In this document: piece by piece, positions 1-45,376 of the stretch
Position numbering within the stretch: the first letter of the stretch is position 1
Layout of the letters: each line of letters opens with the position of its first letter
Assembly: GCA_001563335.1 (NCBI GenBank)
Contig: LRSL01000013.1
Span: 1-64,000, forward strand
Direction of reading: 5' to 3'
Source: Candidatus Thorarchaeota archaeon SMTZ1-45
Lineage (GTDB): Archaea > Asgardarchaeota > Thorarchaeia > Thorarchaeales > Thorarchaeaceae
Length of the DNA: 64,000 nucleotides
The notes under the pieces: generated by a model
Databases searched by the model: none
The model's input: only the letters and a program-made list of their open reading frames with translations
Told to the model about the DNA's origin: nothing
Program-made: the position numbers and the translations under genes

Positions 1-3000
1 AGTAGGTTCAGAGCCTATCGGAAGCCCAATACCATCGTTTCCATTTGATGTACTATCATAGACGGTTCCAGCTGGGTCTTCACTGAGATGCCACACGGCG
101 GCAAAGGAAGTATCCCAGACACCTTCAGAATCTTCATAACTGTTTGAATAAGGATCTCCATAATACATCGAAAAGACTGTATCTGACGCAGATGATAGGT
201 CCATTCTTACCCATGCAATAAGATGGGCATGTGAAGAGTTATACGACTGGTCAAATAGCTCAACTTCGTGGGGGAGTATCCAGCCATCCTTAACAAAAAC
301 AATATCGTCACCGTCTGACTGAACATCCGTTCGAAGGTCAATATCATACATATCAATAAGGACTGGAAATCCAGTGAGGTCTGAAGCAACTTTATTGTGG
401 TCTATTATGATGTCTTTCTTGTACATGAATCTTAGGGGAATTTCCTTTGGTATGATGACTTCACGCTCAATCCCAACTGCGTAGAAGCTAGGTGGATCAA
501 GCTGATTGTTATACTCTGTAAGAATCCACTGTGAGGAAATTGTATCATGGAGAACTCGAACTTCGTCAATTATTGCTCTTGCAAAGAGATTGGGTGATCC
601 AGCATTGTCGTAGTTGTCGCATGCAGCAATCAGAAACGGTTCCACAGAGTTGATATTTCCATATCCAGTAATATCGACAGGCGAAGTTGGCACCTCGGAT
701 CCATCGATATATAAATGAAGCCAGCTTCCCGCCCTTACCATTACAGCGTAATGCCAGAAACCATCATTCAGTGCTGACGCCGAATATATGGAGATTTTTC
801 CGGGTGTACCCGAATTGTCATCAATCTCTGCTTTTACTGTTCCTGAGCCCGTGATTGATATCATGTATCTGTAAGCATTTGTCCCGATGGCTCCTTTCAT
901 AGCCAGTGGTACATCCAAATCCGTCGAGGCGAACCACACACTCATGGCAAAATCATTGTAACCCACTGTAAGCGGAGTAGTATTTCCGCAGTCTACATAG
1001 TCATTCGAACCATCAAAGTCGACAGCATTACCTATATGTCCAATCACTCGGTCACTCTGAGTCATAGATCCATATGTGGTTCCATCATTTCCTTTGTAAG
1101 TGCTATCGATAATTTGTGGAGCCGGTAGTGCACCTGAAGGGTCATCTCCGAGGTGCCACACTCCTTGATACTGATTCCGCCAAACCTCTACAGGATTCTC
1201 TTGGTTTCCGATTGCAGGGTTGGCGTAGTACATTGTGATTAAAGTGTCAGACATCGAAGAGATGTCTACTCTTACCCAAGCGACCAAGTGTGCGTGAGTC
1301 GAGTTATATTGCTGGTTAAAAATCTCTATTTCATGTGGAAGACTCCTTCCATCTGAGGTGAACATAATATCATCACCGTCAGATTGAACCTTTGTTTTTA
1401 GGTCAGAATCGTATATGTCAATTAAAACTGGGAAATCTGTGAGATCAGATGCCACTTTGTTATGGTCGATTGTGATGTCTTTCATATATCGGAAGTTGAC
1501 ATTTTCTTCACCAACGGTCAGGAATAATTCCGGATTTCTCTGATTGTAATATTGAGTTCTAATCCATGCATCAGACCTGGCAACTGTCGAAACCCGCACC
1601 TCATCAACAATGGCATCGAGATATGATGTTCCACCGGGATTGTCAGATCTGCGACCAATTCTAACAGGTCGATCTGGGTCATTCACAGATGCTGGTATTC
1701 CTGAGGTGCTCTCATCTACTAACTCGCCATTCAGGTAGAATCTTGCATAAAATGAAGGGTGGAACACTCCCACGACATGATACCATTGATCAGTGTCAAC
1801 ACGCTCAAAGCCCACAATGTCTGTATTCACGCCATCAGGACTATACCTAAACATCCCCCATCCTGCATGACTAATAGATGGATCATAGTCAAAACTGATG
1901 TCCCAGCCACGATAGTTAGACTCTCCAGACTTGACTACAAGATAGTCATTATCGATGAAATCTGCCTTGAACCACGCCTCAACTGTGAATGCTCCAGTCA
2001 TCTGCAATTCAGTCGGATTTCCAAAATCGACATAATCGTTCACGCCTTCAAGGTCTATCGCCTTACCAATAATACCACTAACACTATCAGTTGTGGTCAT
2101 TGTTCCACCGGTTGAACCATCAAGACCGTATGATGTGCTATCTTTAATCTGAGGTTGGTGTGGTAGATAATCAGCATAGGTGGAGTCCCATTGTGGTTGC
2201 GAAGGATTGTCATTCATATGCCAAACTGCAGAATAGTCGGAGTCCCAGACCTCATCGGGCTTTTCTTGACTTCCAAGATCTTCATCACCATATACCATGA
2301 CAATTGTAGTATCTCCAACAGATGAAAGTTCAGGAATTTTGACCCAACTAACCAGATGAGCATGTGTTCCGTTTCCCTGCTTGTCAAATAATTCCAGATC
2401 ATGTGGAATCGCTTGACCATTAAAGAGGAAAGCTATGTCATCCCCATCTGCTTGAGCATTGATGTGAAGGTGTTCATCCCATATATCTACCAGGACTGGA
2501 AAGTCTTGGAGATTTGAAATGACTTTGGTATGGTCAATGACGATATTCTTGTTAAATCGAAAACTAGGTATTACATCCGAAGGAGCAGAATCAATATAGT
2601 CCACAAACAGTCTAGCAAGGTCCGCTTGAGCAAACCCTGATGAGCCTTTGATTTGATTATAGGTATATTGTTGGTTTGAATAGGCATAGTCAATCATTAT
2701 ACAGATGTAATTCCCACTTTGCCATCCGGGTCTGGACACAACCTCCTGTATAAGGGCTGCAATGTCTGGTGTATCATACCTGCCGTTAGCTGTCCACGTG
2801 GTTGGACGCCAATATACACTTGTGTTCACCCAGTCGTATCTATCAGGAAGAAGTGGGTATCCACTTGTGAACGCAGAAACATCATCCTCAGCTGCAACAT
2901 AAATACGCATTCCAGGAAAACCTGTCGAGTCACTAGGTGCTTCGACTTGAAGCCTAGTTGAAGTGATTGCCGCCCCTTGTGGAACATGTAACGGAAATTG

Positions 3001-4164
3001 AAGTCCAACCTGATAGGCAAAGGCAGTTGTCCAATCAGGATATGCCGGAATGTCAGCTCCGACATCTAACCAACCATTATTCCCATAACCGTTAAGGTCT
3101 ACGCCTCCCGATCCTCCATTCGAATCTAGTGCGCTGTAGCAATCTCTATTGCTTCCATCAGGAACATATGGACTGACACTTCCCTGAGTTGAACCAGTCA
3201 CTTTAACTCCATTTGCTAGGAGGTCAACCTGCTCAGGGAAGGGACGGACTTGCAGCCTTAGTTCAACATCGTCAATATATACTTCATGAACTGAAGATCC
3301 AGGTATACCACTTATGTCCGTGCCAAGACCTATATCAAAAATCATTGAGCCTAGATTTTCCATAGATTGGAAAGCAGATGCAGGTACTATATTTGTGGCT
3401 TGAAGCCATGTATTCATAGGTGTGCCACTTACAAACATATTGTTCTTTGAAATATAGTCCTCGATTCTAGTGAAAATGAATACGTCATTGTCCAAAATGG
3501 AAGTACTTGAAACATAGTAGCGGAATTTGATTTCTGCGGAATAGATACTTCTCCAAGGTATAGGAATCTGCTGGCTGAAATACATCTGATTTGATGGATT
3601 AAGTGTTGTTCCACTACTAGGATTAGCATCGAATCGCCATCCCCATGAATTGTCATATCCATTTCCAGAATATCCATTTATTTCGAATATACCATGCTGT
3701 GGGTGTTCAGTTCCACCAGATGCATCGAACTTCACTATTGTCCATCCATCTGGGATATAAAACGGGTCATCATTATATTCAGGATTACCAGCCATGAGAA
3801 AGTGCTCTACGTGATATGCATTAAGATTCGGATTGACCAACATCGCATCCACCCACATCGAGAGATGGTCAAGCTGCCCCTCCAGCTGTTCAGAACTCCA
3901 CCCCAGGGGAGGATTAATGCCAATGTACCCTGAATGTGAAAAGTCAATCACCGATGTTCCACTCGCGACTCTCAGCCCATTGAGATTCCCAAACAATGGA
4001 TCTCCATTTCCAGAGTTTCTATCCTGCCAATCGCTTAGTACAAAATCATCTCCATCAGAACCGACTCTTTTAGAATAAGAGAACCTCTCTTCAGGAGCAG
4101 GACCACTAGCTAAAGGTACTAAGAAAATGAATATTATTGTAAGAGATATCAATGCTTTTTTCAT
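1..4164 (-). CDS. Large secreted/surface protein with tandem DUF2341 + LamG (ConA-like) modules; partial, runs off the window edge (>1388 aa)
   Basis: Manual minus-strand translation from ATG at 4164 (MKKALISLTIIFIFLVPLASG, signal peptide-like) stays open to base 1. Three repeats of K(N/D)IxIDHxKVxSxLxxFPVL.D.YD.DL...Q.DGDDI.F...LPHE.E.F...HAHLVAWV (DUF2341), followed by LamG motifs (AIDLEGVNDYVDFG, WYHVVGV, IVDEVRVS). Absent from the ORF track because no stop lies in the window. Confidence 0.88.
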   Translation of the reverse strand, partial: MKKALISLTIIFIFLVPLASGPAPEERFSYSKRVGSDGDDFVLSDWQDRNSGNGDPLFGNLNGLRVASGTSVIDFSHSGYIGINPPLGWSSEQLEGQLDHLSMWVDAMLVNPNLNAYHVEHFLMAGNPEYNDDPFYIPDGWTIVKFDASGGTEHPQHGIFEINGYSGNGYDNSWGWRFDANPSSGTTLNPSNQMYFSQQIPIPWRSIYSAEIKFRYYVSSTSILDNDVFIFTRIEDYISKNNMFVSGTPMNTWLQATNIVPASAFQSMENLGSMIFDIGLGTDISGIPGSSVHEVYIDDVELRLQVRPFPEQVDLLANGVKVTGSTQGSVSPYVPDGSNRDCYSALDSNGGSGGVDLNGYGNNGWLDVGADIPAYPDWTTAFAYQVGLQFPLHVPQGAAITSTRLQVEAPSDSTGFPGMRIYVAAEDDVSAFTSGYPLLPDRYDWVNTSVYWRPTTWTANGRYDTPDIAALIQEVVSRPGWQSGNYICIMIDYAYSNQQYTYNQIKGSSGFAQADLARLFVDYIDSAPSDVIPSFRFNKNIVIDHTKVISNLQDFPVLVDIWDEHLHINAQADGDDIAFLFNGQAIPHDLELFDKQGNGTHAHLVSWVKIPELSSVGDTTIVMVYGDEDLGSQEKPDEVWDSDYSAVWHMNDNPSQPQWDSTYADYLPHQPQIKDSTSYGLDGSTGGTMTTTDSVSGIIGKAIDLEGVNDYVDFGNPTELQMTGAFTVEAWFKADFIDNDYLVVKSGESNYRGWDISFDYDPSISHAGWGMFRYSPDGVNTDIVGFERVDTDQWYHVVGVFHPSFYARFYLNGELVDESTSGIPASVNDPDRPVRIGRRSDNPGGTSYLDAIVDEVRVSTVARSDAWIRTQYYNQRNPELFLTVGEENVNFRYMKDITIDHNKVASDLTDFPVLIDIYDSDLKTKVQSDGDDIMFTSDGRSLPHEIEIFNQQYNSTHAHLVAWVRVDISSMSDTLITMYYANPAIGNQENPVEVWRNQYQGVWHLGDDPSGALPAPQIIDSTYKGNDGTTYGSMTQSDRVIGHIGNAVDFDGSNDYVDCGNTTPLTVGYNDFAMSVWFASTDLDVPLAMKGAIGTNAYRYMISITGSGTVKAEIDDNSGTPGKISIYSASALNDGFWHYAVMVRAGSWLHLYIDGSEVPTSPVDITGYGNINSVEPFLIAACDNYDNAGSPNLFARAIIDEVRVLHDTISSQWILTEYNNQLDPPSFYAVGIEREVIIPKEIPLRFMYKKDIIIDHNKVASDLTGFPVLIDMYDIDLRTDVQSDGDDIVFVKDGWILPHEVELFDQSYNSSHAHLIAWVRMDLSSASDTVFSMYYGDPYSNSYEDSEGVWDTSFAAVWHLSEDPAGTVYDSTSNGNDGIGLPIGSEPT

Positions 4165-4345: not shown

Positions 4346-4978
4346 TTAATCCAAAGAGAACTCAATTCTATCTTTAGAAATTAGCTCATTGAGGGCTGGG
4401 GGATTAAGTAGTTCGACTTCAAATTTCTTCTTGGAGATTAATCTAGTTTCTTCTGGAACCAATAAGGATTCAAGAGACGCACATGAGAAAAGAGCTGTTA
4501 AATCCAGTCTTTTGAGTGGATTCTGAAGGAGGTTCAGCTTCTCTAGTTTTACACATCTTGCGAGTGGGGAAAGGTCCAAATTCATGAACCGATTACTCTC
4601 TAGGTTGAGCGAAACAAGATTCTTACATTCTAATAATGCAGAGAGATCAACTCTTAGTAGCTGATTAAAACTCAAATCCAAATGCTCCAGAAGTGAACAA
4701 TAGCCTACCATTTCTAGGTTCAAAATCTGTAAATTGTTGTGACTCAGGACTAGTTTACGAACTGCAGGACTAAATGCCAGAACAGTCAAGTCAACCGTCA
4801 TTAGTTTATTCTCGCTTAGACTGAGTTCCTCAAGAGTGTCAAGTTTGTCAAGCTCAGAGAGGTCTATTGCGATGATTTCTCTCTTTGAGAGATCTAGTAT
4901 TTTTGAATGTGAGGCGATTGGAATTGAGCTATTGGTGCCATCTGATAAGGTGACATTGACTTCTATCACTTTCAACAC
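4346..4978 (-). CDS. Leucine-rich repeat protein (24-aa LRR units)
   Basis: Repeats LEELSLSENKLMTVDLTVL / LEHLDLSFNQLLRVDLSAL / LVSLNLESNRFMNLDLSPL / LEKLNLLQNPLKRLDLTAL match LxxLxLxxNxL. Confidence 0.88.
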   Translation of the reverse strand: MLKVIEVNVTLSDGTNSSIPIASHSKILDLSKREIIAIDLSELDKLDTLEELSLSENKLMTVDLTVLAFSPAVRKLVLSHNNLQILNLEMVGYCSLLEHLDLSFNQLLRVDLSALLECKNLVSLNLESNRFMNLDLSPLARCVKLEKLNLLQNPLKRLDLTALFSCASLESLLVPEETRLISKKKFEVELLNPPALNELISKDRIEFSLD

Positions 4979-5237: not shown

Positions 5238-6542
5238 GTGGTTGTCGTAAAGATGCAAATTCCGGGAACCAACATTGACGTAAGTCTTAAGGTAAATCGT
5301 ATATACATTACAGACCCGGCTGTCACTCGAAGGCTCAAGTTTTCTGGAAAATCATTCAAAGATATCATGGAGGAAGTACAACGATTTGCCTATCTTCGGG
5401 GATTCAATGTTCCCCACCCTATTCTCAAGTTCATTTTGAAAAGAGTTGGACTTCCTGAGGTGGATGTGATACCTGGAGAGGATGAGTTAACAAAGGATGA
5501 CCTTCTTGAACTCTCTCGAGCACTGAATGCGCTTGATACACTAAAAGATGAATTCCTTTCTCCAACTGGAAAGGGCAAGCTATCCGATGATCTCAAGAGC
5601 AATGTAATAGTGTCCACCCCCGATCTTGAAGACTTGGAAACAGACACCCTTGCCCCACAGACACTTGAAGACCTGAAGACAGACACTCCAGCCCCGCAGA
5701 CAATGAGCGTCTGGGATGTTCCTCTCAGTGAGGAAGTCAAAGGTTTAGTCTACTCCTTCCATGCAGAGAATCTCCCAACAAGCACACCCACCCCACGAAC
5801 ACAATCAGCTGATGATGAAACAAAACCAGTGAAATTCATTTGGGATGAACCAGAAGTTATAGCATCCCTGGAAGATATATCAGAAGAGGCGAAATCATCA
5901 GTTGAAGATGTTTCTGACTTATTAGATCTCAAGGTCTTATTCCTTGGCGAAGAAGGCGTTGGAGTCAATAGCATAATCTTCGAATGTAATCTGAAACTCG
6001 GAAACGATTACTCTTCTCTTGACTTACCCCCGACTAGACCATTTACATTCAGCAACATAGTTGAGTACAAAGAAACGAATGTTCGTGTTGACGCATGGAC
6101 GTTCAACAAGAGTATGGAAGCAAAGGTTCCTAAGACAGAGTTCTATACAGGATCTGGAATGGTTGTGCTTGTTTACTCTGTTGCAGATAGATGGAGCTTT
6201 GATAGTCTTGATTTCTGGGTACGAGAGGTATCCAATGCTTTCTTGATTCCACCACCCATAATAATTGTCGGAAATAAGACAGATCTTCGTGATCATCCAG
6301 TCATTGAGGACGAGGATGATGAGCCAGAAATTCCTGTTTCAACCGAAGAAGCTCGTGAATACTGTGATAAAGTCGCAAAATCTTTGGGTGAAAACGGACA
6401 AGCTCATCCACTCTTCTTTATTGAAACTTCAACAATTACTGGAGTAGGAATCACTGAACTACTGAATAAGATTGTAGACTTCTGGCATGTCAATGAACGC
6501 CCAAGTATGCCAGCAACTGAACAACATGTCCCAACACATTGA
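5238..6542 (+). CDS. Ras/Rab-superfamily small GTPase domain with a long acidic N-terminal extension; G1 and G3 degenerate
   Basis: C-terminal half: LKVLFLGEEGVGVNSI (G1-like), VRVDAWT (G3 position), FYTGSGMVVLVYSVADRWSFDSLDFWVREV, IIIVGNKTDLR (G4), FFIETSTITGVGITEL (G5). Confidence 0.85.
   Translation: MVVVKMQIPGTNIDVSLKVNRIYITDPAVTRRLKFSGKSFKDIMEEVQRFAYLRGFNVPHPILKFILKRVGLPEVDVIPGEDELTKDDLLELSRALNALDTLKDEFLSPTGKGKLSDDLKSNVIVSTPDLEDLETDTLAPQTLEDLKTDTPAPQTMSVWDVPLSEEVKGLVYSFHAENLPTSTPTPRTQSADDETKPVKFIWDEPEVIASLEDISEEAKSSVEDVSDLLDLKVLFLGEEGVGVNSIIFECNLKLGNDYSSLDLPPTRPFTFSNIVEYKETNVRVDAWTFNKSMEAKVPKTEFYTGSGMVVLVYSVADRWSFDSLDFWVREVSNAFLIPPPIIIVGNKTDLRDHPVIEDEDDEPEIPVSTEEAREYCDKVAKSLGENGQAHPLFFIETSTITGVGITELLNKIVDFWHVNERPSMPATEQHVPTH
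5625..5702 (+). repeat. In-frame 39-bp imperfect tandem duplication (LEDLETDTLAPQT / LEDLKTDTPAPQT)
   Basis: cttgaagacttggaaacagacacccttgccccacagaca followed by cttgaagacctgaagacagacactccagccccgcagaca. Confidence 0.85.
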
Positions 6543-7045: not shown

Positions 7046-8404
7046 ATGGATTTCTACAAAGTAGCTGGCACTGAACCAATTGGTAACGAAGTTCGAACTC
7101 ATTTCAGTAACCAGATAACAGCTGAAATAGCTGGTACTGATGTAGTCCTAATGGGATGGGTCCACATACTCAGAGATAAAGGAAAACTCAAGTTTCTTGT
7201 TCTGAGAGACGAGCGTGGGACTGTACAAGTAACAATTCCTCAGAAAAGGGTGCCAGAAGAAGTCTTCAAAACCTCAGGGTTACTAAAACCTGAAACCGCA
7301 GTTTCAGTCACAGGGAAAGTTACAGCTGCCAAACAAGTTGCCTCGGGAGCTGAAGTGATTCCAAGGAAGATTCGGATCTTGAACACATCTGAGCGTCTTC
7401 CAATTGATGTCGTTGAAGGAAAAACAGACATTGACCTTGATACAAGACTCAACAATAGAGTCCTCGACTTGAGAAAACCATCAATCAATGCCATCTTCAA
7501 GGTCCAACATAACCTCGTTCGTTTTGCAAGGGCATTTTTGGAGAGCAATGACTTTATTGAGATACACACACCCAAACTTGTCGCTGAAGCGACTGAGGGA
7601 GGTGCTAACCTATTCGAAGTCAAGTATTTCGACAGGAAGGCATACCTGGCTCAGAGTCCCCAATTCTACAAACAGCTCATGCTTTTAGCTGGGTTTGGGC
7701 GAGTCTATGAGATTGCCCCAGTGTTTAGAGCTGAGAAGCACAATACCCGTCGTCATGTCAACGAGTATACATCATTCGATTATGAGATGGCTTGGATTAG
7801 TGGCGTGGAAGATGTCATGAAGATGGAGGAAAACATGCTCCATCATTCATTCAAGATGACTAAGAAGCATGCTGCTGCAGAGTTGGAAATCTTGGGTGTT
7901 GATCTACAGATACCAAAAGTTCCCTTCAAGAGAATCAAATATTCAGAAGCTATTGAACTTGTCAACGAAGCAGGCAAGGGTCTCACAATAACTGATGACC
8001 TTGACCCCGAGTGTGAACGTCTCTTAGGTGAAATATTCCCTAAAAAGTATGGGACAGATATGGTATATATCACACACTATCCCTTGGAGCTTCGTCCAGC
8101 TTATACAATGCCAAGCATGACAGATGAAGGTATGACTGAGAGCTTTGATTTGACCTATAAAGGCATGGAGATTACGACAGGCAGCCAGCGTATTCATCTG
8201 TATGATTTACTTGTAGAGCGGTTCAAGGCTAAGGGCTTTAATCCTGATGATTTTGCATTCTATCTAGACCCCTTCAAATATGGAGCACCGCCTCATGGTG
8301 GTTTAGGACTTGGAGTTGAGCGAATGACCATGCAACTCCTGGGCATTGAAAACATACGTGAGGCTACTCTACTGCCACGAGATCGCGATCGTCTGACACC
8401 TTAG
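7046..8404 (+). CDS. aspS: Aspartyl-tRNA synthetase (archaeal type, possibly non-discriminating)
   Basis: OB fold GWVHILRDKG; TRLNNRVLDLR; LAQSPQFYKQ; motif 2 FRAEKHNTRRHVNEY; motif 3 GAPPHGGLGLGVER; ends PRDRDRLTP. Confidence 0.96.
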   Translation: MDFYKVAGTEPIGNEVRTHFSNQITAEIAGTDVVLMGWVHILRDKGKLKFLVLRDERGTVQVTIPQKRVPEEVFKTSGLLKPETAVSVTGKVTAAKQVASGAEVIPRKIRILNTSERLPIDVVEGKTDIDLDTRLNNRVLDLRKPSINAIFKVQHNLVRFARAFLESNDFIEIHTPKLVAEATEGGANLFEVKYFDRKAYLAQSPQFYKQLMLLAGFGRVYEIAPVFRAEKHNTRRHVNEYTSFDYEMAWISGVEDVMKMEENMLHHSFKMTKKHAAAELEILGVDLQIPKVPFKRIKYSEAIELVNEAGKGLTITDDLDPECERLLGEIFPKKYGTDMVYITHYPLELRPAYTMPSMTDEGMTESFDLTYKGMEITTGSQRIHLYDLLVERFKAKGFNPDDFAFYLDPFKYGAPPHGGLGLGVERMTMQLLGIENIREATLLPRDRDRLTP

Positions 8405-8477: not shown

Positions 8478-9245
8478 ATGCACCTAATGCACGAGCGACT
8501 TCACTCAGAACTCTATGCTTCAATTGCTACACTTGATCAATTGAAGAAATTATATGACCTTGGTGCAGTAGATATTCGTTCGTACCAACGAGAGTCGCAA
8601 GCTCTTCTACAAGATGTTCGTTCACAGCTAGAGAACATGAAGCGAATGGGTTTTGATATCAGCACGTTCGTGTCAACTGAACGCATAATCGAGGCTTTTC
8701 CTGAAGCTGCCAATCTGCTTCGACTTAGCAGTCATGCTCCAAGGCGGTCACTTCAAGGGATGACTTTGGACCAATTCTATGATTATATTGGTCTAGCTGT
8801 GCTTGATGTGGCTACAGAGCATTCATCAAAGGGACTAATGGGGTTGGCTGAACTAATAGTCGAGGTTGTAAGACGTCTTCCAGAACTTGAATCTGTGACA
8901 TATAATGATGTCATCGAGTCTGTGAACCGTGTTGCTGACAATGGCCTTATCCCAGGAATACGCACGCTTCGAGGCGGAGTCAAAGTTGTAGAGTTACGAC
9001 CCCTCGAGCTGAGACGTGACCAAGCAGATGTAATTAATCTGGCAGCATCAAAAGGATATGTTTCTGTTGAAGAAGTAATTATGCAAATGAAGTGGTCTGA
9101 GGATCATGCTCGACAAGTTTTATCCAGTTTGGTTGAGGCTGGCATGGCTGTTGCTGATATCCGCTTTTCAACAGGCGGTCGATATTACTTCCCTGGACTC
9201 AGAGCTCGCGATAGTTCTGATCCAAGAGTAACAGGTGCATACTAA
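8478..9245 (+). CDS. ESCRT-II Vps22/Vps36-like (EAP30) tandem winged-helix protein with an N-terminal Vps28-like domain
   Basis: aa ~98-242 (DQFYDYIGLAVLDV...GLMGLAEL...PLELRRDQADVINLAASKGYVSVEEVIMQMKWSEDHARQVLSSLVEAGMAVAD...YYFPGL) align by eye with the Vps22/SNF8 WH domains. aa ~1-83 (SELYASIATLDQLKKLYDLGAVDIRSYQRESQALL...ISTFV...PEAANLL) resemble the Vps28 N-terminal core. Confidence 0.82.
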   Translation: MHLMHERLHSELYASIATLDQLKKLYDLGAVDIRSYQRESQALLQDVRSQLENMKRMGFDISTFVSTERIIEAFPEAANLLRLSSHAPRRSLQGMTLDQFYDYIGLAVLDVATEHSSKGLMGLAELIVEVVRRLPELESVTYNDVIESVNRVADNGLIPGIRTLRGGVKVVELRPLELRRDQADVINLAASKGYVSVEEVIMQMKWSEDHARQVLSSLVEAGMAVADIRFSTGGRYYFPGLRARDSSDPRVTGAY

Positions 9246-9247
9246 GA

Positions 9248-9955
9248 TTATGTTGAAATAAGAATTGCTCCTTTCTTAACCAAAAGTGCTAATACAATGT
9301 GAATGTCTTTTTCTGGCAGACTCGCAAAGTCCTCTTTGACTTCCTGTATAACTATTGACTTTACATCAAGTCTAAGTTTTCCTTTCTTGAGTGCCCACTG
9401 ATACAGAATATCTGCCCAATCCTCAAGAGGTCGCCAATAGACTCTCAATTGTCGTTTTTTCTTGTCTATCCACTCAGCAACTTGCTTGTCTATTAATACT
9501 GCAGCAATCGCATTGAAGGAGTCTACCTTATTCCTCAAATCCTTGAATGGTGGCTCACCTATGAAGGTAGCAAGTGAGAGAATATGCACATTATTCCCCT
9601 CTGTCCACTCTAATAGAAAATCTGCCCATTCCTCAGCCCAAAGTAATTTATCCTCTTCTCTTGTAGGAATACCATACATCCATTCAGTTTCTTCAATATC
9701 TCCCCAGTCAGGCATAATGAAATCAAGTTCCGTCACTACAGTTTTGGTAGCTGTTTCATCAACAACCTCAATTTTTACCTCAGGTTCTTCAGTTTCAGTT
9801 GGTTCTGAAATCTCTACGACAACCTCGGGGGAATGAACCTCCTCCTCTATGATAATCTCATCAACAGAAGGAGCTGACTCGACTTTTTCTTTTTCAACAG
9901 TTGAGGTTGTTTCCTTCGTTTTGGTCTTTTCCTTTTTCCTCTCCCGCACGCCCAC
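9248..9955 (-). CDS. vps25: ESCRT-II Vps25-like protein with an acidic N-terminal extension
   Basis: WAEEWADFLLEW...AEWIDKKKRQLRVYWRPLEDWADILYQW is the Vps25 signature (AEW.D......YWR.PEEWA.LIY.W); directly downstream of vps4 (3-bp gap). Confidence 0.85.
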   Translation of the reverse strand: MGVRERKKEKTKTKETTSTVEKEKVESAPSVDEIIIEEEVHSPEVVVEISEPTETEEPEVKIEVVDETATKTVVTELDFIMPDWGDIEETEWMYGIPTREEDKLLWAEEWADFLLEWTEGNNVHILSLATFIGEPPFKDLRNKVDSFNAIAAVLIDKQVAEWIDKKKRQLRVYWRPLEDWADILYQWALKKGKLRLDVKSIVIQEVKEDFASLPEKDIHIVLALLVKKGAILIST

Positions 9956-9958
9956 TCT

Positions 9959-11176
9959 TTAGGAACCCTCCGCCCAGTCAATGTATCTCTTGACATCCTC
10001 TGGGGGAGTTGCTGGGCGGATGTTTTCTATAGCATGCAGGAAATCATCCCGTGACACGGGGCGGATGTCCAATATCTCCTGCTCATCATCCATTCTACCA
10101 GTACGCTGCAAATCCCTAATTGGTTCCATGGCTGCCTCACGACAGACAACACTAATGTCTCTTCCACTATATCCCTCTGTAAGATCTGCCAGCTCGTCAT
10201 ATTCAACAGTTGGTGAAACCTCAACATCTTCCATATGAATCTCGAAAATCTTTGCTCGTGCCTCTCTATCTGGGAGTGGAACATGTATCTTCTTCTCAAA
10301 CCTGGAACGTAATGCGAAATCCAATTCCCATGGGAGATTCGTTGCTCCGATGAGTGTTATGCGATCTTCCTCATCGCTGGCAAGACCTTGAAGCTCTGTG
10401 AGTAACTGTGTCTTAAGACGTCTCTCGCCTCCCACATCATCACCTGACCTAGAAACACCAATTGAATCTAGCTCATCGATGAAGATTATCGCTGGTTGAT
10501 TTTTTCTTGCTAAATCAAATAAGCTCATCACAAGCCTCTCCGATTCACCCAGCCACTTGCTTACAATATTCGCAGCTGAAACATTGAAGAATGTTGCATT
10601 AACCTCCGATGCTACAGCTTTAGCAACAAGTGTTTTTCCACAACCTGCAGGTCCATAGAACAAAATCCCTCGCCATGGTTGTCTAGCTTTCCCCTTGAAG
10701 AGCTCAGGATGTTTCATGGGCGCAATTATTGCATCATCAATTGCTTGTTTTGCATCTGCAAGACCTGCAACCTCCGACATCTTCATTCTTGGACGTTCTG
10801 ATATGATGGTGTCAGAGATCATTTCTCTGAGTCTCTTCTCCTCCTCATCTAGCTCTGCTACTGCCTTTGAAGTTTCTTGGATTGGTACTTGCTCTGCAGG
10901 ACCAACATCAACCTTTGGAGGAACCATAAGACCATCAACTGGTCCATGGGATTTTTTCTTTATTCCAGAAAGATACCTTACCCTATCTACACATTCTTGA
11001 GCTCGGTCAAGATAGTGCTTTTTGACAGAAGGCAATGCCGCAGAGTTTGATAACTTGATCAGAATCTTACTTGCCTTGAGATACTCCTGACAAGCGTCTT
11101 TCTTCATACCTCTATTATCAAGTTCTATTGCTTTGGCAAGCAAAGCCTTTAGTCCATGGTCAACTCGATCCGCCAT
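9959..11176 (-). CDS. vps4: Vps4 AAA+ ATPase with N-terminal MIT domain
   Basis: MIT (KAIELD...ACQEYLKA...YLDRAQ); EVAGLADAKQAI; PWRGILFYGPAGCGKT; SKWLGESERLV; IIFIDELD; ERRLKTQLL; GATNLPWELD. Confidence 0.95.
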   Translation of the reverse strand: MADRVDHGLKALLAKAIELDNRGMKKDACQEYLKASKILIKLSNSAALPSVKKHYLDRAQECVDRVRYLSGIKKKSHGPVDGLMVPPKVDVGPAEQVPIQETSKAVAELDEEEKRLREMISDTIISERPRMKMSEVAGLADAKQAIDDAIIAPMKHPELFKGKARQPWRGILFYGPAGCGKTLVAKAVASEVNATFFNVSAANIVSKWLGESERLVMSLFDLARKNQPAIIFIDELDSIGVSRSGDDVGGERRLKTQLLTELQGLASDEEDRITLIGATNLPWELDFALRSRFEKKIHVPLPDREARAKIFEIHMEDVEVSPTVEYDELADLTEGYSGRDISVVCREAAMEPIRDLQRTGRMDDEQEILDIRPVSRDDFLHAIENIRPATPPEDVKRYIDWAEGS

Positions 11177-11179
11177 GTA

Positions 11180-11273
11180 TGTTCATGTGAACACTATTTG
11201 TAAGGTGTTAAGAATTTCTGTCACACCCAGTACATACATACGCAATATTATTTGCGAACTGCGAAGGTTTAAA
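11180..11273. promoter_or_regulatory. Divergent vps4/ESCRT-III promoter region with two inverted repeats and a BRE-TATA
   Basis: tgttca-tg-tgaaca at 11180-11193; cgcaa-tattat-ttgcg at 11241-11256; gcgaagg+tttaaa at 11261-11273. Confidence 0.45.
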
Positions 11274-11318
11274 CGCGAACTTCTCATGAATGATTTGAGG
11301 TTACACTCCTAGAATTAG

Positions 11319-11936
11319 GTGAGATATTTGGGTTCAATTAGAAAGGCATTCTCCTGGGGTAGAAAGAAACCGGACATTGGTGAAATATCCAGCCGCCTCA
11401 GGATATTGTCAAAACAATTAGCGCGCCAAAGGAACAAGTTGGAGAAGGAAGAACGTGATGCAAAATCTCGTGCTGTCCGAGCAAGAAAGGCTAGTCAGAT
11501 GGAAGCATATCGAACATATGCTACTGAGATGGTGCGATTTCGAAGATATGCTCTTTCCGTTGATAAGTCACGGCTTCAGATTCTAAAGATTCTAGCTCAT
11601 CTAAATCGTGCTCAAACTTCTGCAAAGACACAGATCGCCCTTCAAGAGGTTGCAAAGATACTTGGAATGCTCGGAGATGGCACGGATGCTTCGAAAGTTG
11701 TTGCTAATGTTGATGAGATTGCTCGACGCCTTGAGGAGTTCGAGATTGAAGCTAGCATCTCTGACGAAGCACTTGATTCAACTATGGAAGTGACGTCTGA
11801 AGACATGACCTTCGCCTTTCAAGAAATTGATGCTGAGGCTGGACTCGCTGATGCATCTACAGCTGCGAAACCTATAGGTGAAGCTGAGTCTTTGGAGGAA
11901 GACATCAAAGCATTAGAACGTGAACTTGGTGTATAA
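11319..11936 (+). CDS. ESCRT-III (Snf7 family, Vps2/24/46-like) subunit
   Basis: Basic N-terminal hairpin (LRILSKQLARQRNKLEKEE...AYRTYATEMVRFRR), acidic C-terminus with MIM1-like end ESLEEDIKALERELGV; divergent from vps4. Confidence 0.88.
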   Translation: MRYLGSIRKAFSWGRKKPDIGEISSRLRILSKQLARQRNKLEKEERDAKSRAVRARKASQMEAYRTYATEMVRFRRYALSVDKSRLQILKILAHLNRAQTSAKTQIALQEVAKILGMLGDGTDASKVVANVDEIARRLEEFEIEASISDEALDSTMEVTSEDMTFAFQEIDAEAGLADASTAAKPIGEAESLEEDIKALERELGV

Positions 11937-11938
11937 TA

Positions 11939-13516
11939 CTACCAGAGCTTGTCACGAGTATCTCTTGTGACGCGTTCAATCTCGCGTCTGTTATGATACG
12001 AGTCTCTCATAAGGTCTCTATATCTTCTGATGAAATCTTCAGTAACAAGCTGCCCACTTCGCAACATATGGACTGTATCCCGAATTGCATCTTCAATGGA
12101 TGCAGCGTCTCTTCGCAATGAATGTAATCTAGGACTCACATCATAGGTCGGATGCGGATTTTGTGTCTGATCGTATCGTTTCATGACCCTGTCTAATTCA
12201 TCACGAAATGATTCAGGTTTCCTGTAATAGCTATCATAAGGACTTCTTCGAACAGGTGTTGACCCCCAACCCCCAACCTGCTGTTTGAAACCAGGTCTCA
12301 TCAGAAACCGTTCTTCCTCATATTGTACTCTATCATTAGTTGAAAGTAATGAATATACCATCCCCTCAATCTTGAGTCTTACATCGCTAGTGCCAACATC
12401 TGTCTGTTCTATTTTCCTAACCCTTTGCATGTCTGTCTGTATATACTTCTCAAACTTTCTAGCAATCTCAATATAATCCGGTAGAACTCTCTTTGTTTGG
12501 TCTGAACAGGTCGCTTTGATTTCACCCTGTTTTAGTTTCAGAACTACACGTTTTCTGAGTCGTCCATCTTCTTCAATGGACTTTAGGTAAATCAATGGAA
12601 AATCAAAGATTGTTTCCATCTTCTTTCTTACTCGTCCAGTTTCTGCAATGAAAAGAAGTCTCTTGTTAGTGATAAAGAGTGTTCCCAATGCTTTATCATT
12701 CTTGAGAAAGTCACTCCCCGCGATCTTGATTTCAGGAAGTGCACAGACTGGAAGCTCTCCGACAGACAACTGGCCATGCTCATAGAATGTTGCGAATTGT
12801 CCTTTATAGTAGTCGAGTCCATCAAGTTGTCTTCTAATGTCCTTTAATGTGTTCTTGAGTGGTTCAAGTGCTTCATCAACATTTTGTCTATAATAGATAC
12901 CCATCTCAGTGATTCTGTTAGTTATACCCTCAATGAATGGGAATTGCGTTGGATTCCATTGAGTATAGTCTATGAAATTCTTAGTTTCCGCAGCCATCCT
13001 CTTTGCAATGATTTCAGCTTGGCTAGAGATTCTATTCTTAATAGCTGGAAGTTCGTTCTGAATAGCTTCAATCTTTTCCTCTATCCATCTGTAATGGAGA
13101 AAGTTAGCCATCCTAAGTGACACGAGTAATCTTTTCGCATTCGCTAACTTATTGGTGAACTCTCTGAGCTTTGTATGACCATATTGAATGGTCATTATTG
13201 CATGTCTCATATCTAAAGCTAGCGACCTTCTTCGATCTTCTAGAAGTACGACTCTAGTAGAGTGGCATCTAGGACAGATATCAACAGTCTTTCTTCCCTT
13301 ACTCAGATTTTCCGACTCACATTGTGGACACTCTTCGAATTTTTCCCCTGGGACAGGAGTGCCAAGGGTGTGATGACAATCACTACAGACGGTGTATTCA
13401 CTTGACCTCGATTCAAGGCATTCAGAACACAGGGCCGCTCCACAATCCTCACACATGTGAGTCGCTCTGTTTGACTGGCAAGATTTACAGTGTCCAGATG
13501 AAGGATCTTTTATCAA
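11939..13516 (-). CDS. Zn-finger + coiled-coil + GRAM/PH-like + C-terminal Vps23/Vps37-like steadiness-box protein (putative ESCRT-I-related)
   Basis: CxxC pairs and a B-box-like CKSC..HMCEDC..LCSEC; ALGTLFITNKRLLFI...DFPLIYLKSIE (GRAM/GLUE-like); C-terminal IEDAIRDTVHMLRSGQLVTEDFIRRYRDLMRDSYHNRREIE. TTG start with an upstream GGAGGT. Confidence 0.65.
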   Translation of the reverse strand: MIKDPSSGHCKSCQSNRATHMCEDCGAALCSECLESRSSEYTVCSDCHHTLGTPVPGEKFEECPQCESENLSKGRKTVDICPRCHSTRVVLLEDRRRSLALDMRHAIMTIQYGHTKLREFTNKLANAKRLLVSLRMANFLHYRWIEEKIEAIQNELPAIKNRISSQAEIIAKRMAAETKNFIDYTQWNPTQFPFIEGITNRITEMGIYYRQNVDEALEPLKNTLKDIRRQLDGLDYYKGQFATFYEHGQLSVGELPVCALPEIKIAGSDFLKNDKALGTLFITNKRLLFIAETGRVRKKMETIFDFPLIYLKSIEEDGRLRKRVVLKLKQGEIKATCSDQTKRVLPDYIEIARKFEKYIQTDMQRVRKIEQTDVGTSDVRLKIEGMVYSLLSTNDRVQYEEERFLMRPGFKQQVGGWGSTPVRRSPYDSYYRKPESFRDELDRVMKRYDQTQNPHPTYDVSPRLHSLRRDAASIEDAIRDTVHMLRSGQLVTEDFIRRYRDLMRDSYHNRREIERVTRDTRDKLW

Positions 13517-13681: not shown

Positions 13682-15067
13682 ATGGAAGAACTCGCTCAGG
13701 TGGCCATTGATGCAGCTCTAAATGCCGGTGTTATGTTTGCAGATGTACGGATAGAGAACTCCACCACAACAATCATTGAACTTAATGATGGCATTACAAG
13801 GCAATCTATGGCCTCTCGGATGAAAGGAGCTGGAATCCGAGCATTCATCGATGGTGCCTGGGCTTTTGCTCAAACAACAAATCTATCCCGAGAAGGTATG
13901 CGAGCAACAGGACGATCAGTAGCTAAGTTAGCTCGAGCCACTCGGGAGAAAGTTGCAGATCGATTTAAAATCGAAGGTCCTGTTTTTGAGGACAATGTTA
14001 AGCTGAACGTGAAGAAACCTTTCGATACTGTATCTATTGATGAGAAGATGCAATTTGTAAAACTGATTGACGATCAGGCACGCAACTTTGACAAGCGAAT
14101 TGTGGCAACTCGCACGATTTATGGTGAACTAACATCAGAGATTTTCATTGCAAACACGTTAGGAACTCGTGTTTATCTTCAAAATACTATCCCTCGTATA
14201 ATCTCAGTTCCCACTGCTAAGGAGGGTCCTAATAGACAACGGATTCAGCAGTCTATTAGCCTTCGAAGCGGATTCGAAGAGATGGAAACCGAAAATGCTC
14301 AAACAATTGGCATTCGAGCATCACAACTCGCAATCGAGCTATTATCCTCAAAGACAGCTGAGGGTGGAATCTACGATGTCGTTATAGACCCTGCACTGAA
14401 TGGTGTTGTTACCCACGAGGCTTTTGGTCATGCAACAGAAGCTGATAATTGGCCTGCTCACTCAACAGTTTTGGAGGAGAAATTAAATGAAACGGTGGGT
14501 CCAGAATATCTTAGTATAAGTGACGACCCAACCCTGACTGGGATGCGAGGGTCCACTGAATATGATTGGGAGGGTACTAAAACCAAGAAACGATTGCTCG
14601 TAAAAGATGGCATTTTGACAGACTTACTCCATAGTTTAGAAACATCAAGTCGTTTGGGACTAGAACCAAATGGTGCTGCAAGAGCTCAATCATTCATGCA
14701 TGTTCCCCTACCTCGTATGAGCAATACCTTCATGGAACCAAAAGACTGGGATGTAGATGAACTCATTGAGGACACGAAGAAAGGCATACTTCTTTGCAGT
14801 TTCAACTATGGCTATACACAATCTGCAAAAGGTCAATTCATGTTTCAAGCCAGTCATGGCTATCTAATTGAAAATGGTGAGAAAGGGACAATGGTGAGGG
14901 ATGTATCACTTGCAGGAAATATCCTTGAGATATTGGCAAAAGTCGATGCTATTGGAAAAGATTTCGAGTTAGAAGCAGGAACTTGTGGCAAAGATGGTCA
15001 AAGCATTCCCACTATGACTGGTGGTCCTCATGCAAGAATCAGACAGGTGCCAGTAGGAGGAATGTAA
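13682..15067 (+). CDS. tldD: TldD family metalloprotease
   Basis: GAGIRAFIDGAWAFA; HEAFGHATEAD (HExxxH); PRMSNTFMEP; CGKDGQ..P...GGPH. Confidence 0.93.
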   Translation: MEELAQVAIDAALNAGVMFADVRIENSTTTIIELNDGITRQSMASRMKGAGIRAFIDGAWAFAQTTNLSREGMRATGRSVAKLARATREKVADRFKIEGPVFEDNVKLNVKKPFDTVSIDEKMQFVKLIDDQARNFDKRIVATRTIYGELTSEIFIANTLGTRVYLQNTIPRIISVPTAKEGPNRQRIQQSISLRSGFEEMETENAQTIGIRASQLAIELLSSKTAEGGIYDVVIDPALNGVVTHEAFGHATEADNWPAHSTVLEEKLNETVGPEYLSISDDPTLTGMRGSTEYDWEGTKTKKRLLVKDGILTDLLHSLETSSRLGLEPNGAARAQSFMHVPLPRMSNTFMEPKDWDVDELIEDTKKGILLCSFNYGYTQSAKGQFMFQASHGYLIENGEKGTMVRDVSLAGNILEILAKVDAIGKDFELEAGTCGKDGQSIPTMTGGPHARIRQVPVGGM

Positions 15068-15068
15068 A

Positions 15069-16418
15069 CTGAATGAGAGTCTTCTTGAAACAGCTGAATA
15101 TGCTGTGAAACATGCTGAAAAGCTTGGAGCCTCTCAAGCTGAAGCTTATGTGGGACAGTCTCGTGCCTTTGCGATTGAAGCTGAGAACTCTGCAATCCGC
15201 AACGCTGAGGAGAAGCGTGATGCTGGTATTGGTGTTCGAGCTGTCATAGACAAGAGAATAGGCTTTGCTTTTGTAACAACATTATCCAAAAAAGATGTTC
15301 GTGAAGCTGTAACAAGTTCGGTGAAGCTTGCGAGAGCTTCAATTCCTGATCCAGAGTTCGTTAGTCTCCCAGCATCTGATGGATCCTATCCAATTGTGAA
15401 GGGTCTTTTTGATAAAAACATCGCAGAACTTCCTTCAGATGCTACTGCAGATATGATAATCAGAATTCTTGATGCTTCCAAGGAAGTCCTTGAAGGTCGA
15501 AACTACGCCATCTCTGCAGGAGTTCAGAGTTCATCTGGGATGAATGCAATTGTAAATTCATTAGGGATTTCCTTCTCTGAAAAACGATCATCCATCTTCT
15601 TATACTGCTCCCCTGTTGTTAAGGAAACTGATGACCAAACGACAAGTTACGATTATCAATTAACTCGGGACCTAACTGAAATTAATCCCGAGCAGGTGGG
15701 AAAGAATGCAGCTGAATTAACACTTAGTGTTCTTGGTCCTAAGACAATTGAGAGTGGTGAGATGCCTGTTGTTTTTGCTCCCTTGGGAGGAGGAACAGTC
15801 ATAGGATACGGATTTGCTGGTGCTGTTAGTGCAGAGGAGGTACAGAAAGGACGTTCGTATGTCACTGATGCTTTCGGAGATGTTATTGCATCAGATAATA
15901 TCGAGATATTTGATGATGCTCTATTGACAGGAGGGTTGGGATCCCGAACCTTTGATGCTGAAGGATTCCGCTCACAGCGGACCTCGATAATCGAAAAGGG
16001 TGTGCTTAAGGGATTTCTGCACAACTCCTATACTGCATACAAGGACAAAGTTCCAAATACCGGGAATGCAAGTAGACCCTCTTATTCAGGCCTTCCTTCA
16101 ATTTCAACATCGAATCTCATTTTATCTCCTGGACGGGGAACATTAGACGATTTAGTTTCAGAGATAGACCGAGGTGTTCTTTGTCGAAATACTGCAGATC
16201 GACCAAATATGACTACAGGCGATCTGAGTGCTATGTTGTACGAAGGTTTCTACATCGAAAGAGGTGAGATTAAACATCCACTCAAGAATACACTAGTAGG
16301 AATAAACATGCGTGATTTGTTACAACGGATTAACCAAGTTGGGAGTGACACTAAAGCCACGTTGGCAATGATAACTCCTTCATTTGTGGTTGAAAATGCT
16401 GTAGTTACTTCTGGATAG
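15069..16418 (+). CDS. pmbA: PmbA/TldE family protein (start probably CTG at 15069; the ORF track starts at 15105)
   Basis: GIGVRAVIDKRIGFA; FDAEG; TGNASR; follows tldD; AGGAGGA at 15055-15061 precedes an in-frame CTG. Confidence 0.88.
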   Translation: MNESLLETAEYAVKHAEKLGASQAEAYVGQSRAFAIEAENSAIRNAEEKRDAGIGVRAVIDKRIGFAFVTTLSKKDVREAVTSSVKLARASIPDPEFVSLPASDGSYPIVKGLFDKNIAELPSDATADMIIRILDASKEVLEGRNYAISAGVQSSSGMNAIVNSLGISFSEKRSSIFLYCSPVVKETDDQTTSYDYQLTRDLTEINPEQVGKNAAELTLSVLGPKTIESGEMPVVFAPLGGGTVIGYGFAGAVSAEEVQKGRSYVTDAFGDVIASDNIEIFDDALLTGGLGSRTFDAEGFRSQRTSIIEKGVLKGFLHNSYTAYKDKVPNTGNASRPSYSGLPSISTSNLILSPGRGTLDDLVSEIDRGVLCRNTADRPNMTTGDLSAMLYEGFYIERGEIKHPLKNTLVGINMRDLLQRINQVGSDTKATLAMITPSFVVENAVVTSG

Positions 16419-36268: not shown

Positions 36269-36279
36269 ATGAGTTAATT

Positions 36280-40288: not shown

Positions 40289-40289
40289 A

Positions 40290-43180: not shown

Positions 43181-43243
43181 GCTTCGTTCAGTTCCTGTGC
43201 GTGGTAAATCGGCCAACACATAGCACCATAATAAGGTTGCGAA

Positions 43244-43273: not shown

Positions 43274-43356
43274 AACTAAAAATTAACCCAGTTAAGTAGT
43301 TCATTTAGGAAAGGAAACAATATTCCCCCTAGACTTTCAATTCGTAAGTGAGATAG

Positions 43357-45366: not shown

Positions 45367-45376
45367 TCAAAACCAC

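Follow-up and report, generated by a model that had tools for sequence, protein, structure and literature searches.

The window analyzed here is a 64,000-nucleotide stretch of contig LRSL01000013.1 from Candidatus Thorarchaeota archaeon SMTZ1-45. [quoted passage not shown] They make up the core ESCRT locus that is conserved in Thorarchaeota, a standard five-gene cluster. We hold with moderate confidence that the locus as a whole is best explained as a core ESCRT system whose fifth gene codes for an adaptor of 525 amino acids that joins ESCRT-II by hairpin pairing, with a helical hairpin at its C-terminus contacting another at the N-terminus of the Vps22 protein. The locus and its architecture are already in print (PMC10936438), and it does not represent a new kind of system. 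The useful remainder is a concrete, testable wiring diagram of the Asgard ESCRT-I/II link, with named contact residues, that is backed by a natural fusion protein.

The first gene of the cluster (8478-9245, + strand) codes for a Vps22/EAP30 protein of ESCRT-II with 255 amino acids, which is recognized by the Pfam family EAP30 and by profile and fold matches to SNF8. Its AlphaFold2 (AF2) model, made with 31 sequences, has a mean predicted local distance difference test (pLDDT) value of 78.6 and includes a hairpin followed by two winged helices. The hairpin resembles the Vps28 N-terminal domain or a steadiness box (SB), spans residues 2-56 (8481-8645, + strand), and is formed by helices 2-27 and 33-56 with a pLDDT of about 93. 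The adaptor (11939-13516, - strand) has a TTG start and is composed of a zinc-binding module, long helices, a PH-like domain, and a C-terminal SB-like hairpin. The latter spans residues 462-524 (11945-12133, - strand) and is formed by helices 462-486 and 492-524 with pLDDT values of 80-91.

The complex prediction took residues 1-85 of Vps22 and residues 450-525 of the adaptor, with a separate alignment for either chain. The interface score (ipSAE) came to 0.84 in each of the three runs, compared with 0.00 for the highest-scoring of three controls. For calibration, 116 of 157 solved complexes attain that mark, as do 2 of 215 mismatched pairs. The runs share at least 97% of their contacts, and the pLDDT of the partner is at least 82. 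In addition, the predicted contact residues are better conserved than the rest of each hairpin. The mean fraction identical is 0.81 at contacts versus 0.65 elsewhere for the Vps22 hairpin (p 0.015), and 0.76 versus 0.58 for the adaptor hairpin (p 0.005). Invariant contact residues include A14, A17, T18, E39, and L43 of Vps22 and R486, F495, and Y499 of the adaptor. A preliminary description of this DNA had proposed that hairpin pairing yields a two-chain ESCRT-I/II. The predicted complex and the conserved contacts provide support in silico for pairing of the two hairpins, but the Pfam scores of the hairpins are all below threshold.

A small set of natural fusion proteins carries the two partners without the hairpins. 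Three sequence clusters (P0271, P0345, and P0346) of 601-610 amino acids, with 2, 5, and 7 member sequences (14 altogether), all match PF04157 and are 64-100% identical to each other. Residues 4-362 of the fusion are homologous to the zinc, helical, and PH-like part of the adaptor (hhalign probability 99.85%, E 9.4e-31), and homology to the winged helices of the window's Vps22 spans residues 466-601 (32% identity, E 4e-20; hhalign 98.7%). These winged helices are much closer to Vps22 (E 6.3e-7) than to Vps36 (E 0.23). The fused clade also has a match to the Vps36_ESCRT-II (GLUE) family that falls below threshold (22 bits versus 24.1), and one member is named as Promethearchaeota. Neither hairpin is present in the fused chain, which is the expected outcome if the hairpins serve to join the adaptor and Vps22. 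Thus, contact conservation and the natural fusion are two independent observations that point the same way. We also considered whether P0271 is an assembly chimera. This was ruled out by the presence of three clusters, by their range of identities and number of sequences, and by their common full length.

In the mechanism that we envision, the adaptor would act upstream, where its PH-like domain, and possibly its zinc module, would meet the membrane or cargo. Its C-terminal hairpin is predicted to pack on the N-terminal hairpin of Vps22 to form a bundle like that of the ESCRT-I headpiece. This contact would join the adaptor straight to ESCRT-II, without the bridge between the Vps28 C-terminal domain and Vps36-GLUE. 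The Vps22 winged helices would then bind Vps25 to give the Y-shaped ESCRT-II, in line with the adjacency of the two genes, ESCRT-II would recruit ESCRT-III polymers, and Vps4 would disassemble them, as suggested by the eukaryotic pathway and by the Asgard two-hybrid data reported in PMC9192718. The two hairpin proteins together would be the non-covalent equivalent of a Vps36-like subunit that has zinc, PH, and winged-helix parts, which a small Asgard clade makes as one chain.

The first protein is assigned to the Vps22 family. The EAP30 match covers residues 85-227 with an E-value of 1.3e-13 (51.6 bits versus a gathering cut-off of 26.8), and the family is matched by all 31 orthologues. The profile of these 31 sequences finds human SNF8 (3cuq_A, E 3.2e-20) over residues 89-241. 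The tandem winged-helix core, as judged from the AF2 secondary structure, the EAP30 match, and the SNF8 alignment, encompasses residues 97-237 (8766-9188, + strand). In most orthologues the first residue corresponds to M4 of the open reading frame (ORF), and translation may therefore truly begin with the ATG at 8487 instead of the one at 8478.

The likeness of the Vps22 N-terminus to Vps28 is more subtle. A VPS28 match at residues 10-78 (E 0.0011) aligns with profile positions 2-70 of 188, and 15 of the 31 orthologues match this family at E ≤ 0.1, none of them at the curated cut-off. With the orthologue profile, Vps28 N-terminal chains are found in four yeast structures of the ESCRT-I core, with E-values of 0.08-0.11 over residues 6-65. 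No part of the protein matches the last two thirds of the VPS28 profile in Pfam, where the C-terminal four-helix bundle that binds ESCRT-II would be expected, and the remaining chain is occupied by the winged helices. A protein-atlas search with the N-terminus returned no usable match, and an NCBIfam scan added nothing for either Vps22 or the adaptor.

The adaptor is a multi-domain protein whose matches to established families are all weak. Its AF2 model (32 sequences, mean pLDDT 72.3) includes a beta-rich region (residues 1-91), three long helices (92-233), a domain of seven strands and a helix (256-353), two short helices, a disordered segment (394-435), and the C-terminal hairpin. Pfam matches are to DZR (E 0.15, residues 30-84), bPH_3 (0.026, residues 274-335), Mod_r (0.23, residues 458-512), and Vps23_core (0.044, residues 470-511). 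No winged helix was found in the adaptor by the AF2 model or by family searches. Pfam also gave no UQ_con or UEV match, and the N-terminus is instead a 12-cysteine zinc module.

The putative zinc-binding module (residues 1-91; 13244-13516, - strand) carries 12 cysteines that would form three four-cysteine sites. C10, C13, C22, C25, C30, C33, C44, C47, C63, C66, C81, and C84 are invariant in 36 family sequences, some of which are only about 20% identical. B-box is matched by 16 of the 32 adaptor orthologues (best E 1.9e-5), and the top PDB matches are weak and to FYVE, RING, and B-box chains. There is no NZF match in the PDB profile search or in a Pfam scan of the 32 orthologues. The spacing of the first eight cysteines, along with weak matches to B-box, ANCHR-like B-box, FYVE, and RING domains, suggests a cross-brace followed by a ribbon.

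Next in the chain, residues 92-233 (12818-13243, - strand) form three long helices (92-136, 142-177, and 189-233, pLDDT mostly 76-89) of a coiled-coil or helical bundle. The PH/GRAM-like domain at residues 256-353 (12458-12751, - strand) has seven strands and a C-terminal helix in the AF2 model, which is the PH topology. A Foldseek search with the full-length model ranks DH-PH RhoGEFs, the Lam6 PH-like domain, and GRK2 at the top with E-values of 5.5e-6 to about 1e-4. These matches are local only (TM-scores of 0.12-0.34, root-mean-square deviation of about 20 Å), and the C-terminal hairpin is outside their reach. The bPH_3 score is 15.4 bits versus a cut-off of 23. Among the 32 orthologues, bPH_3 is matched by 16, GRAM by 6, Vps23_core by 6 (best E 5.7e-4), and Mod_r by 3. 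A protein-atlas search with the PH region yielded PH-like leads only, all under the 0.9 mark of the tool. For the C-terminal hairpin, the Mod_r match has 11.9 bits versus a curated cut-off of 30.1, and the adaptor profile finds yeast Vps23 core chains with E-values of 0.15-0.69.

Relatives of the adaptor preserve much of this architecture. They number 166 at E ≤ 0.001, with the best 120 of the 166 listed, and an exhaustive phmmer search, run against 1.84 billion representatives, yielded 94 at the same threshold. The named relatives of both Vps22 and the adaptor are mostly from Candidatus Thorarchaeota, and the best are 94% and 89-91% identical. Distant adaptor relatives are 20-31% identical, reach 1171 amino acids, and mostly align over residues 10-395 only. 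The few that are named are from Promethearchaeota, Jordarchaeales, and 'Asgardarchaeia'. A Pfam scan was made of 47 of the 94, leaving out the three closest as well as short or fragmentary ones. PH-like families (bPH_3, GRAM, or Vps36_ESCRT-II) are matched in 26 of the 47, and 11 of these score no lower than the bPH_3 cut-off. The C-terminus of 13 matches Vps23_core, the best being P0255 (E 7.2e-6, 26.3 bits versus the cut-off of 26.8).

The five ORFs lie back to back with intergenic gaps of 2, 3, 142, and 2 nucleotides, and they form four transcription units rather than a single operon. The vps22 gene is on the + strand downstream of aspS. The vps4 and vps25 genes share the - strand, with vps4 directly upstream of vps25. 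The ESCRT-III gene (+ strand) is divergent from vps4, and the adaptor gene (- strand) is convergent with the ESCRT-III gene and divergent from tldD across a gap of 165 nucleotides. The flank on one side is the gene for AspRS (7046-8404, + strand; Pfam tRNA-synt_2, E 3.8e-92), and on the other are the genes for a TldD and PmbA/TldE metallopeptidase pair (13682-16418, + strand; Pfam PmbA_TldD domains). These coordinates and the Pfam matches bear out the preliminary description of five contiguous ESCRT genes flanked by aspS and tldD, and every domain call that it made for the five proteins proved right.

We examined synteny in 75 loci, one per GTDB species and mostly titled Thorarchaeota, which were found with a Thorarchaeota-level alignment and in which genes were placed by tblastn. 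The complete Thorarchaeota chromosomes CP070761.1 and CP070658.1 are among the sources of these loci. Synteny beyond Thorarchaeota was taken from Table S2 of PMC10936438. The fixed order is ArgRS, PmbA, TldD, adaptor, ESCRT-III, Vps4, Vps25, Vps22, AspRS, and a winged helix-turn-helix protein. In 52 of the 53 loci that extend at least 5.2 kb past the adaptor gene, ESCRT-III, Vps4, Vps25, and Vps22 are all present in the same order. The grouping of five genes is therefore not due to chance, and conservation of the adaptor gene beside ESCRT genes, which had been put forward as a check, is seen in the same 52 Thorarchaeota loci. AspRS is syntenic in 56 of the 75 loci, and TldD is found in all 66 loci that have sufficient upstream DNA.

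Several observations weigh against the adaptor acting through hairpin pairing as we propose. The controls for the complex prediction were unrelated natural proteins, none of which is a helical hairpin. Solved ESCRT-I cores exist, so the score may reflect likeness to these structures rather than binding. When the two hairpins were compared by hhalign with each other and with other helical parts, no homology was detected (probability at most 5.6%). Both hairpin family assignments are under the Pfam cut-offs (VPS28, 19.3 bits versus 24.5; Vps23_core, 14.2 bits versus 26.8). The neighborhood likewise provides reasons for caution. ArgRS, PmbA, TldD, and AspRS are housekeeping neighbors that are equally syntenic within Thorarchaeota, and adjacency to ESCRT genes inside this group is therefore weak evidence of function. 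The exceptional locus (L032; 9549-17545 of the complete chromosome CP070658.1) keeps the adaptor and ESCRT-III genes, and vps4, vps25, and vps22 are not at that place. There, their positions are taken by genes for an 1087-amino-acid protein that matches no Pfam family, a pyridoxal phosphate-dependent enzyme, and PPDK. Furthermore, the only ESCRT-III of the cluster is outside the Vps20 class, which is the class reported to be bound by Vps25. Finally, two-hybrid data show that Thorarchaeota Vps22 interacts with itself, and a Heimdallarchaeota Vps22 is reported to dimerize via residues 41-47 and 160-167 (PMC9192718).

This last point raises a serious competing possibility, to which we assign a minor but appreciable chance. 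The Vps22 hairpin might be the counterpart of the N-terminal helical domain of eukaryotic Vps22 and Vps36, and might mediate homodimerization of Vps22 in place of Vps22-Vps36 pairing. If so, the adaptor hairpin would bind other hairpin proteins, such as a BAR-Vps28 N-terminal domain protein encoded elsewhere, or itself, rather than Vps22. A Foldseek search with the Vps22 model finds human SNF8 (2zme_A, E 6.5e-9) and yeast Vps22 (1u5t_A, E 4.6e-7), and the alignment to SNF8 extends over 246 columns of the 255-residue protein, such that the N-terminal helices of the model coincide with those of SNF8 itself. The helical domain upstream of the first winged helix in Vps22 and Vps36 is described as likely to promote their interaction (PMC10936438), and the tables of that source include a BAR-Vps28 N-terminal domain fusion in a related Thorarchaeota genome (HHpred row KXH73277.1). 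However, the heteromeric hairpin pair scores far above its controls, and the residues that make contact are the conserved ones. The fused chain is also difficult to accommodate, in that the N-terminal 360 residues of the adaptor are joined there to winged helices of the Vps22 type, and both hairpins are gone. Moreover, homodimerization and pairing with the adaptor are compatible, as a three-hairpin bundle of two Vps22 chains and one adaptor chain satisfies both.

The frozen neighborhood also makes it conceivable, albeit very improbable in our estimation, that the adaptor is not an ESCRT component at all. It could be part of a housekeeping block and have its partner elsewhere, for example in the TldD/PmbA pair. 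The block from ArgRS, PmbA, and TldD through the adaptor and ESCRT genes to AspRS is conserved whole, TldD is invariably upstream, and the adaptor gene is divergent from tldD. In addition, the L032 adaptor remains with TldD and ESCRT-III where the other ESCRT genes are not present. These facts are outweighed by the recurrence of the SB-like hairpin across the adaptor family, by the clade in which the family is fused to Vps22-type winged helices, and by the strong score of the predicted hairpin complex. Additionally, Table S2 of PMC10936438 places a Lokiarchaeota member of the family next to the gene for an ESCRT-III of the Vps20 family, and the 12 genes that it lists do not include TldD. Thus, an adaptor that joins ESCRT-II remains the reading that we favor.

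A separate question is whether the system operates without ubiquitin. Pfam searches of the five ESCRT ORFs, their flanks, and 58 further ORFs (E ≤ 0.01) revealed neither a further Snf7 nor any ubiquitin, ThiF/E1, UQ_con/E2/UEV, RING-E3, or JAB/JAMM family in the 64-kb window. Therefore, the statement in the preliminary description that no ubiquitin-system gene lies by the cluster extends to the entire window. Thorarchaeota seemingly lack ubiquitin, as no true homologue was found in the genomes analyzed in PMC9192718, where the co-location analysis used 30 genomes. UEV-Vps23 is reported to be absent from Thorarchaeia (10.1101/2023.07.25.550441). This group is the obvious lineage in which to study ESCRT recruitment that does not rely on a ubiquitin tag.

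The same preliminary description had called the cluster a minimal, ubiquitin-independent machine. The lack of ubiquitin genes in the window agrees with this claim, but a related genome does not. The Thorarchaeota genome with an adaptor orthologue that is 83% identical (locus L010) has the same five-gene cluster in Table S2 of PMC10936438. Away from this cluster, the table lists a Vps20-family ESCRT-III, a fusion of a BAR domain to the Vps28 N-terminal domain that is encoded between two Rab-like GTPases, and a second EAP30 protein of 778 amino acids with a coiled coil. It also lists a gene for a Uba5-like E1 adjoining a Jab1/MPN gene and a pair of short, unannotated ORFs of 390 and 240 nucleotides. 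Because this related genome has genes for a Vps20-class ESCRT-III and for additional hairpin proteins at other sites, the cluster is not self-contained or minimal. Independence from ubiquitin-like tags is not established, and the ubiquitin-free status holds for the window only.

The E1-like and Jab1/MPN genes of this relative prompt consideration of a system that is not independent of ubiquitin-like proteins, which we view as improbable. Under this scenario, the cross-brace zinc module or another part of the adaptor would read a ubiquitin-like modifier made by an E1-like/JAB system located elsewhere in the genome. A zinc finger of yeast Vps36 is known to bind ubiquitinated cargo (PMC10936438). 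Furthermore, the Lokiarchaeota gene for the protein named Znr_CC_PH_SB (cog.011556), a member of the adaptor family and the one noted above beside a Vps20-family ESCRT-III gene, is from a genome for which Table S2 also lists a ubiquitin-like protein. Opposing this scenario are the reported lack of true ubiquitin and of UEV-Vps23, the lack of any ubiquitin-system family in the window, and a zinc module that is only weakly like B-box, FYVE, and RING domains and does not match NZF. Because the architecture is present in Lokiarchaeota genomes that encode a ubiquitin-like protein, it is not tied to the loss of ubiquitin.

The three remaining genes of the cluster are readily classified. The vps25 gene (9248-9955, - strand) codes for an ESCRT-II protein of 235 amino acids (Pfam ESCRT-II, E 5.8e-11, 43.2 bits versus a cut-off of 27). 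By phmmer, residues 87-228 match PDB entry 7pb9_A, 'Tandem WH domains of Vps25', with an E-value of 3e-30. Its N-terminal extension of about 90 residues (9680-9955, - strand) is acidic and rich in Glu, Lys, Thr, and Val. This extension has no matches, and solved Vps25 chains align from residue 68-87 on.

The vps4 gene (9959-11176, - strand) codes for a 405-amino-acid AAA+ ATPase that matches Pfam AAA (E 3.1e-39, 134.9 bits), AAA_lid_3, and Vps4_C (23.5 bits versus a cut-off of 21.3). An MIT domain is recognizable at residues 11-69 below its cut-off (22.5 versus 30 bits), and the NCBIfam CdvC match (E 2.1e-79) is below the equivalog cut-off of that model. The ESCRT-III subunit (11319-11936, + strand) has 205 amino acids and matches Pfam Snf7 (E 1.1e-8, 35.4 bits versus a cut-off of 27.3). 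Its closest PDB matches are ranked as CHMP1B (E 1.4e-7), CHMP2A (3.9e-5), CHMP3 (1.2e-3), and Snf7 (9.9e-3). By sequence similarity, this sole ESCRT-III of the cluster belongs to the CHMP1/2/3 (Vps2/24/46) class, and its orthologue is named 'Vps24 family' in Table S2 of PMC10936438. Asgard two-hybrid data tie Vps25 to the ESCRT-IIIB or Vps20 class (PMC9192718).

Table S2 of PMC10936438 has a block for contig LRSL01000013.1 with coordinates identical to those of ORFs in the window (5238-6542, 7046-8404, 8478-9245, 9248-9955, 9959-11176, 13682-15067, and others). The vps22 gene is listed there as an 'EAP30/Vps36 family protein' and the fifth gene, at 11939-13195, as an 'uncharacterized protein'. 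This listed model has 418 amino acids and omits 107 N-terminal residues (13196-13516, - strand), where every one of the 12 invariant cysteines lies. Initiation at the TTG of position 13516 is supported because the N-terminus is conserved in orthologues and because DNA-level matches in related loci cover adaptor residues 1-525.

Other entries of the same source describe the components more fully. Asgard Vps22 proteins are said to be generally fused to an SB, and genes from Thorarchaeota SMTZ1-83 and Lokiarchaeum carry the label 'EAP30/Vps36 family protein fused to Vps28' (cog.002769). The protein Znr_PH_CC_SB is described as Asgard-specific, probably ancestral, and likely to belong to ESCRT-I, with a PH domain for which membrane association is expected (PMC10936438). 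These reports put into perspective the idea in the preliminary description that ESCRT-I and ESCRT-II domains have been swapped. The domains are indeed placed as it described, but the wording is eukaryote-centered, as an SB-bearing Vps22 is the general Asgard form.

A Thorarchaeota orthologue of the adaptor is labeled as a winged-helix protein in the tables of PMC10936438, and the middle domain appears PH-like in our analysis. This Thorarchaeota group (cog.002441) and cog.011556 look like one family, because residues 256-353 adopt a PH-like fold, no winged helix is apparent, and homology over residues ~10-395 extends to members at the bPH_3 cut-off. A phmmer search ties the adaptor to Asgard proteins of the same architecture with E-values of 1e-63 to 1e-20.

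According to PMC9192718 ('Asgard archaea shed light on the evolutionary origins of the eukaryotic ubiquitin-ESCRT machinery'), Vps22 has an interaction with a steadiness-box protein of Lokiarchaeota, and Asgard archaea yielded no homologue of Vps36. In the literature text searched, which excluded figures, PDF supplements, and bioRxiv supplements, there is no mention of a chain that joins the zinc, helical, and PH-like parts to EAP30 winged helices, or of an explicit hairpin-hairpin link between the adaptor and Vps22.

A more far-reaching model can be put forward tentatively, and we think it possible but doubtful. The adaptor and the hairpin-bearing Vps22 could be a two-chain, headpiece-clipped equivalent of Vps36, and the fused clade could be a genuine archaeal Vps36-like subunit. 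ESCRT-I and ESCRT-II might then have begun as one hairpin-bundled supercomplex that could be completed in Thorarchaeota by a BAR-Vps28N hairpin and that might recruit ESCRT-III by sensing lipids or curvature without ubiquitin. If this is true, the design of Vps36 with zinc, PH, and tandem winged-helix parts, which is held to be a eukaryotic invention in PMC9192718, was already explored in Asgard archaea. The fused clade thus bears on the timing of the origin of Vps36.

Several other genes in the window might be relevant to eukaryote-like trafficking or to metabolism. Two genes upstream of the ESCRT cluster, an ORF at 5238-6542 (+ strand) codes for a Ras/Roc-family small GTPase domain (residues 232-413) that follows about 230 acidic, repeat-like residues with no family match. 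This gene is syntenic in only 10 of the 75 loci. The ORF at 19798-20646 (+ strand) has a weak longin-domain match, and its positional orthologue after TFIIB is called 'Longin' in a table of PMC10936438. Other trafficking candidates of eukaryote-like character are a Yip1-domain membrane protein (23884-24717, - strand) and a TPR protein with a SNAP-like match (60497-62302, - strand).

A CO dehydrogenase/acetyl-CoA synthase cluster, with CdhA-E-like genes and CooC-type ATPases, is located at 35459-45835 (- strand) and 45957-51676 (+ strand) beside genes for an Hdr/Mvh-delta-like flavoprotein and for polyferredoxin. This arrangement is consistent with the Wood-Ljungdahl pathway. At the start of the window, an open-ended ORF of more than 1388 amino acids (1-4164, - strand) has Laminin_G_3 and DUF2341 domains and is probably a surface protein. 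Next to it is a gene for a leucine-rich-repeat protein of 210 amino acids (4346-4978, - strand).

Among known systems, the cluster can be compared with two eukaryotic counterparts. Like the ESCRT-I headpiece, in which hairpins of Vps23 SB, Vps37 SB, and the Vps28 N-terminus bundle together (PDB 2f66, 2caz, and 2p22), it encodes helical hairpins for which bundling is predicted. The similarities are weak and mutually consistent, with the Vps22 N-terminus resembling Vps28-N and the adaptor C-terminus resembling the Vps23 core. However, the cluster encodes two hairpin proteins rather than three, and one hairpin resides on an ESCRT-II subunit. Furthermore, the cluster is without a UEV domain, a Vps28 C-terminal bundle, Vps37, and Mvb12, and the family scores are all below curated cut-offs.

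The second eukaryotic counterpart is Vps36, which has a GLUE (split-PH) domain, NZF zinc fingers in yeast, a helical domain, and two winged helices. The adaptor and Vps22 jointly carry zinc, PH-like, helical, and tandem winged-helix modules. In the window these modules are on two chains, whereas a PH/GLUE domain and EAP30 winged helices occur in one chain only in P0271, P0345, and P0346. Also unlike Vps36, the adaptor PH-like domain is not split by a zinc-finger insert, and its zinc module is N-terminal and appears to be of the cross-brace plus ribbon type.

The closest counterparts are the Asgard proteins already described. The Vps22 protein of the window shares with Asgard Vps22 (cog.002769) an N-terminal hairpin and two winged helices, and its gene likewise converges on vps25 and has vps4 and an ESCRT-III gene nearby, with no difference found between the two. 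The positional orthologue of the adaptor gene in cog.002441 is a gene of 1578 nucleotides between a Vps24-family ESCRT-III gene and TldD (PMC10936438 Table S2). Together with Znr_CC_PH_SB, this group shares with the adaptor three zinc sites, long helices, a PH-like domain, a C-terminal SB-like hairpin, and a gene for ESCRT-III alongside.

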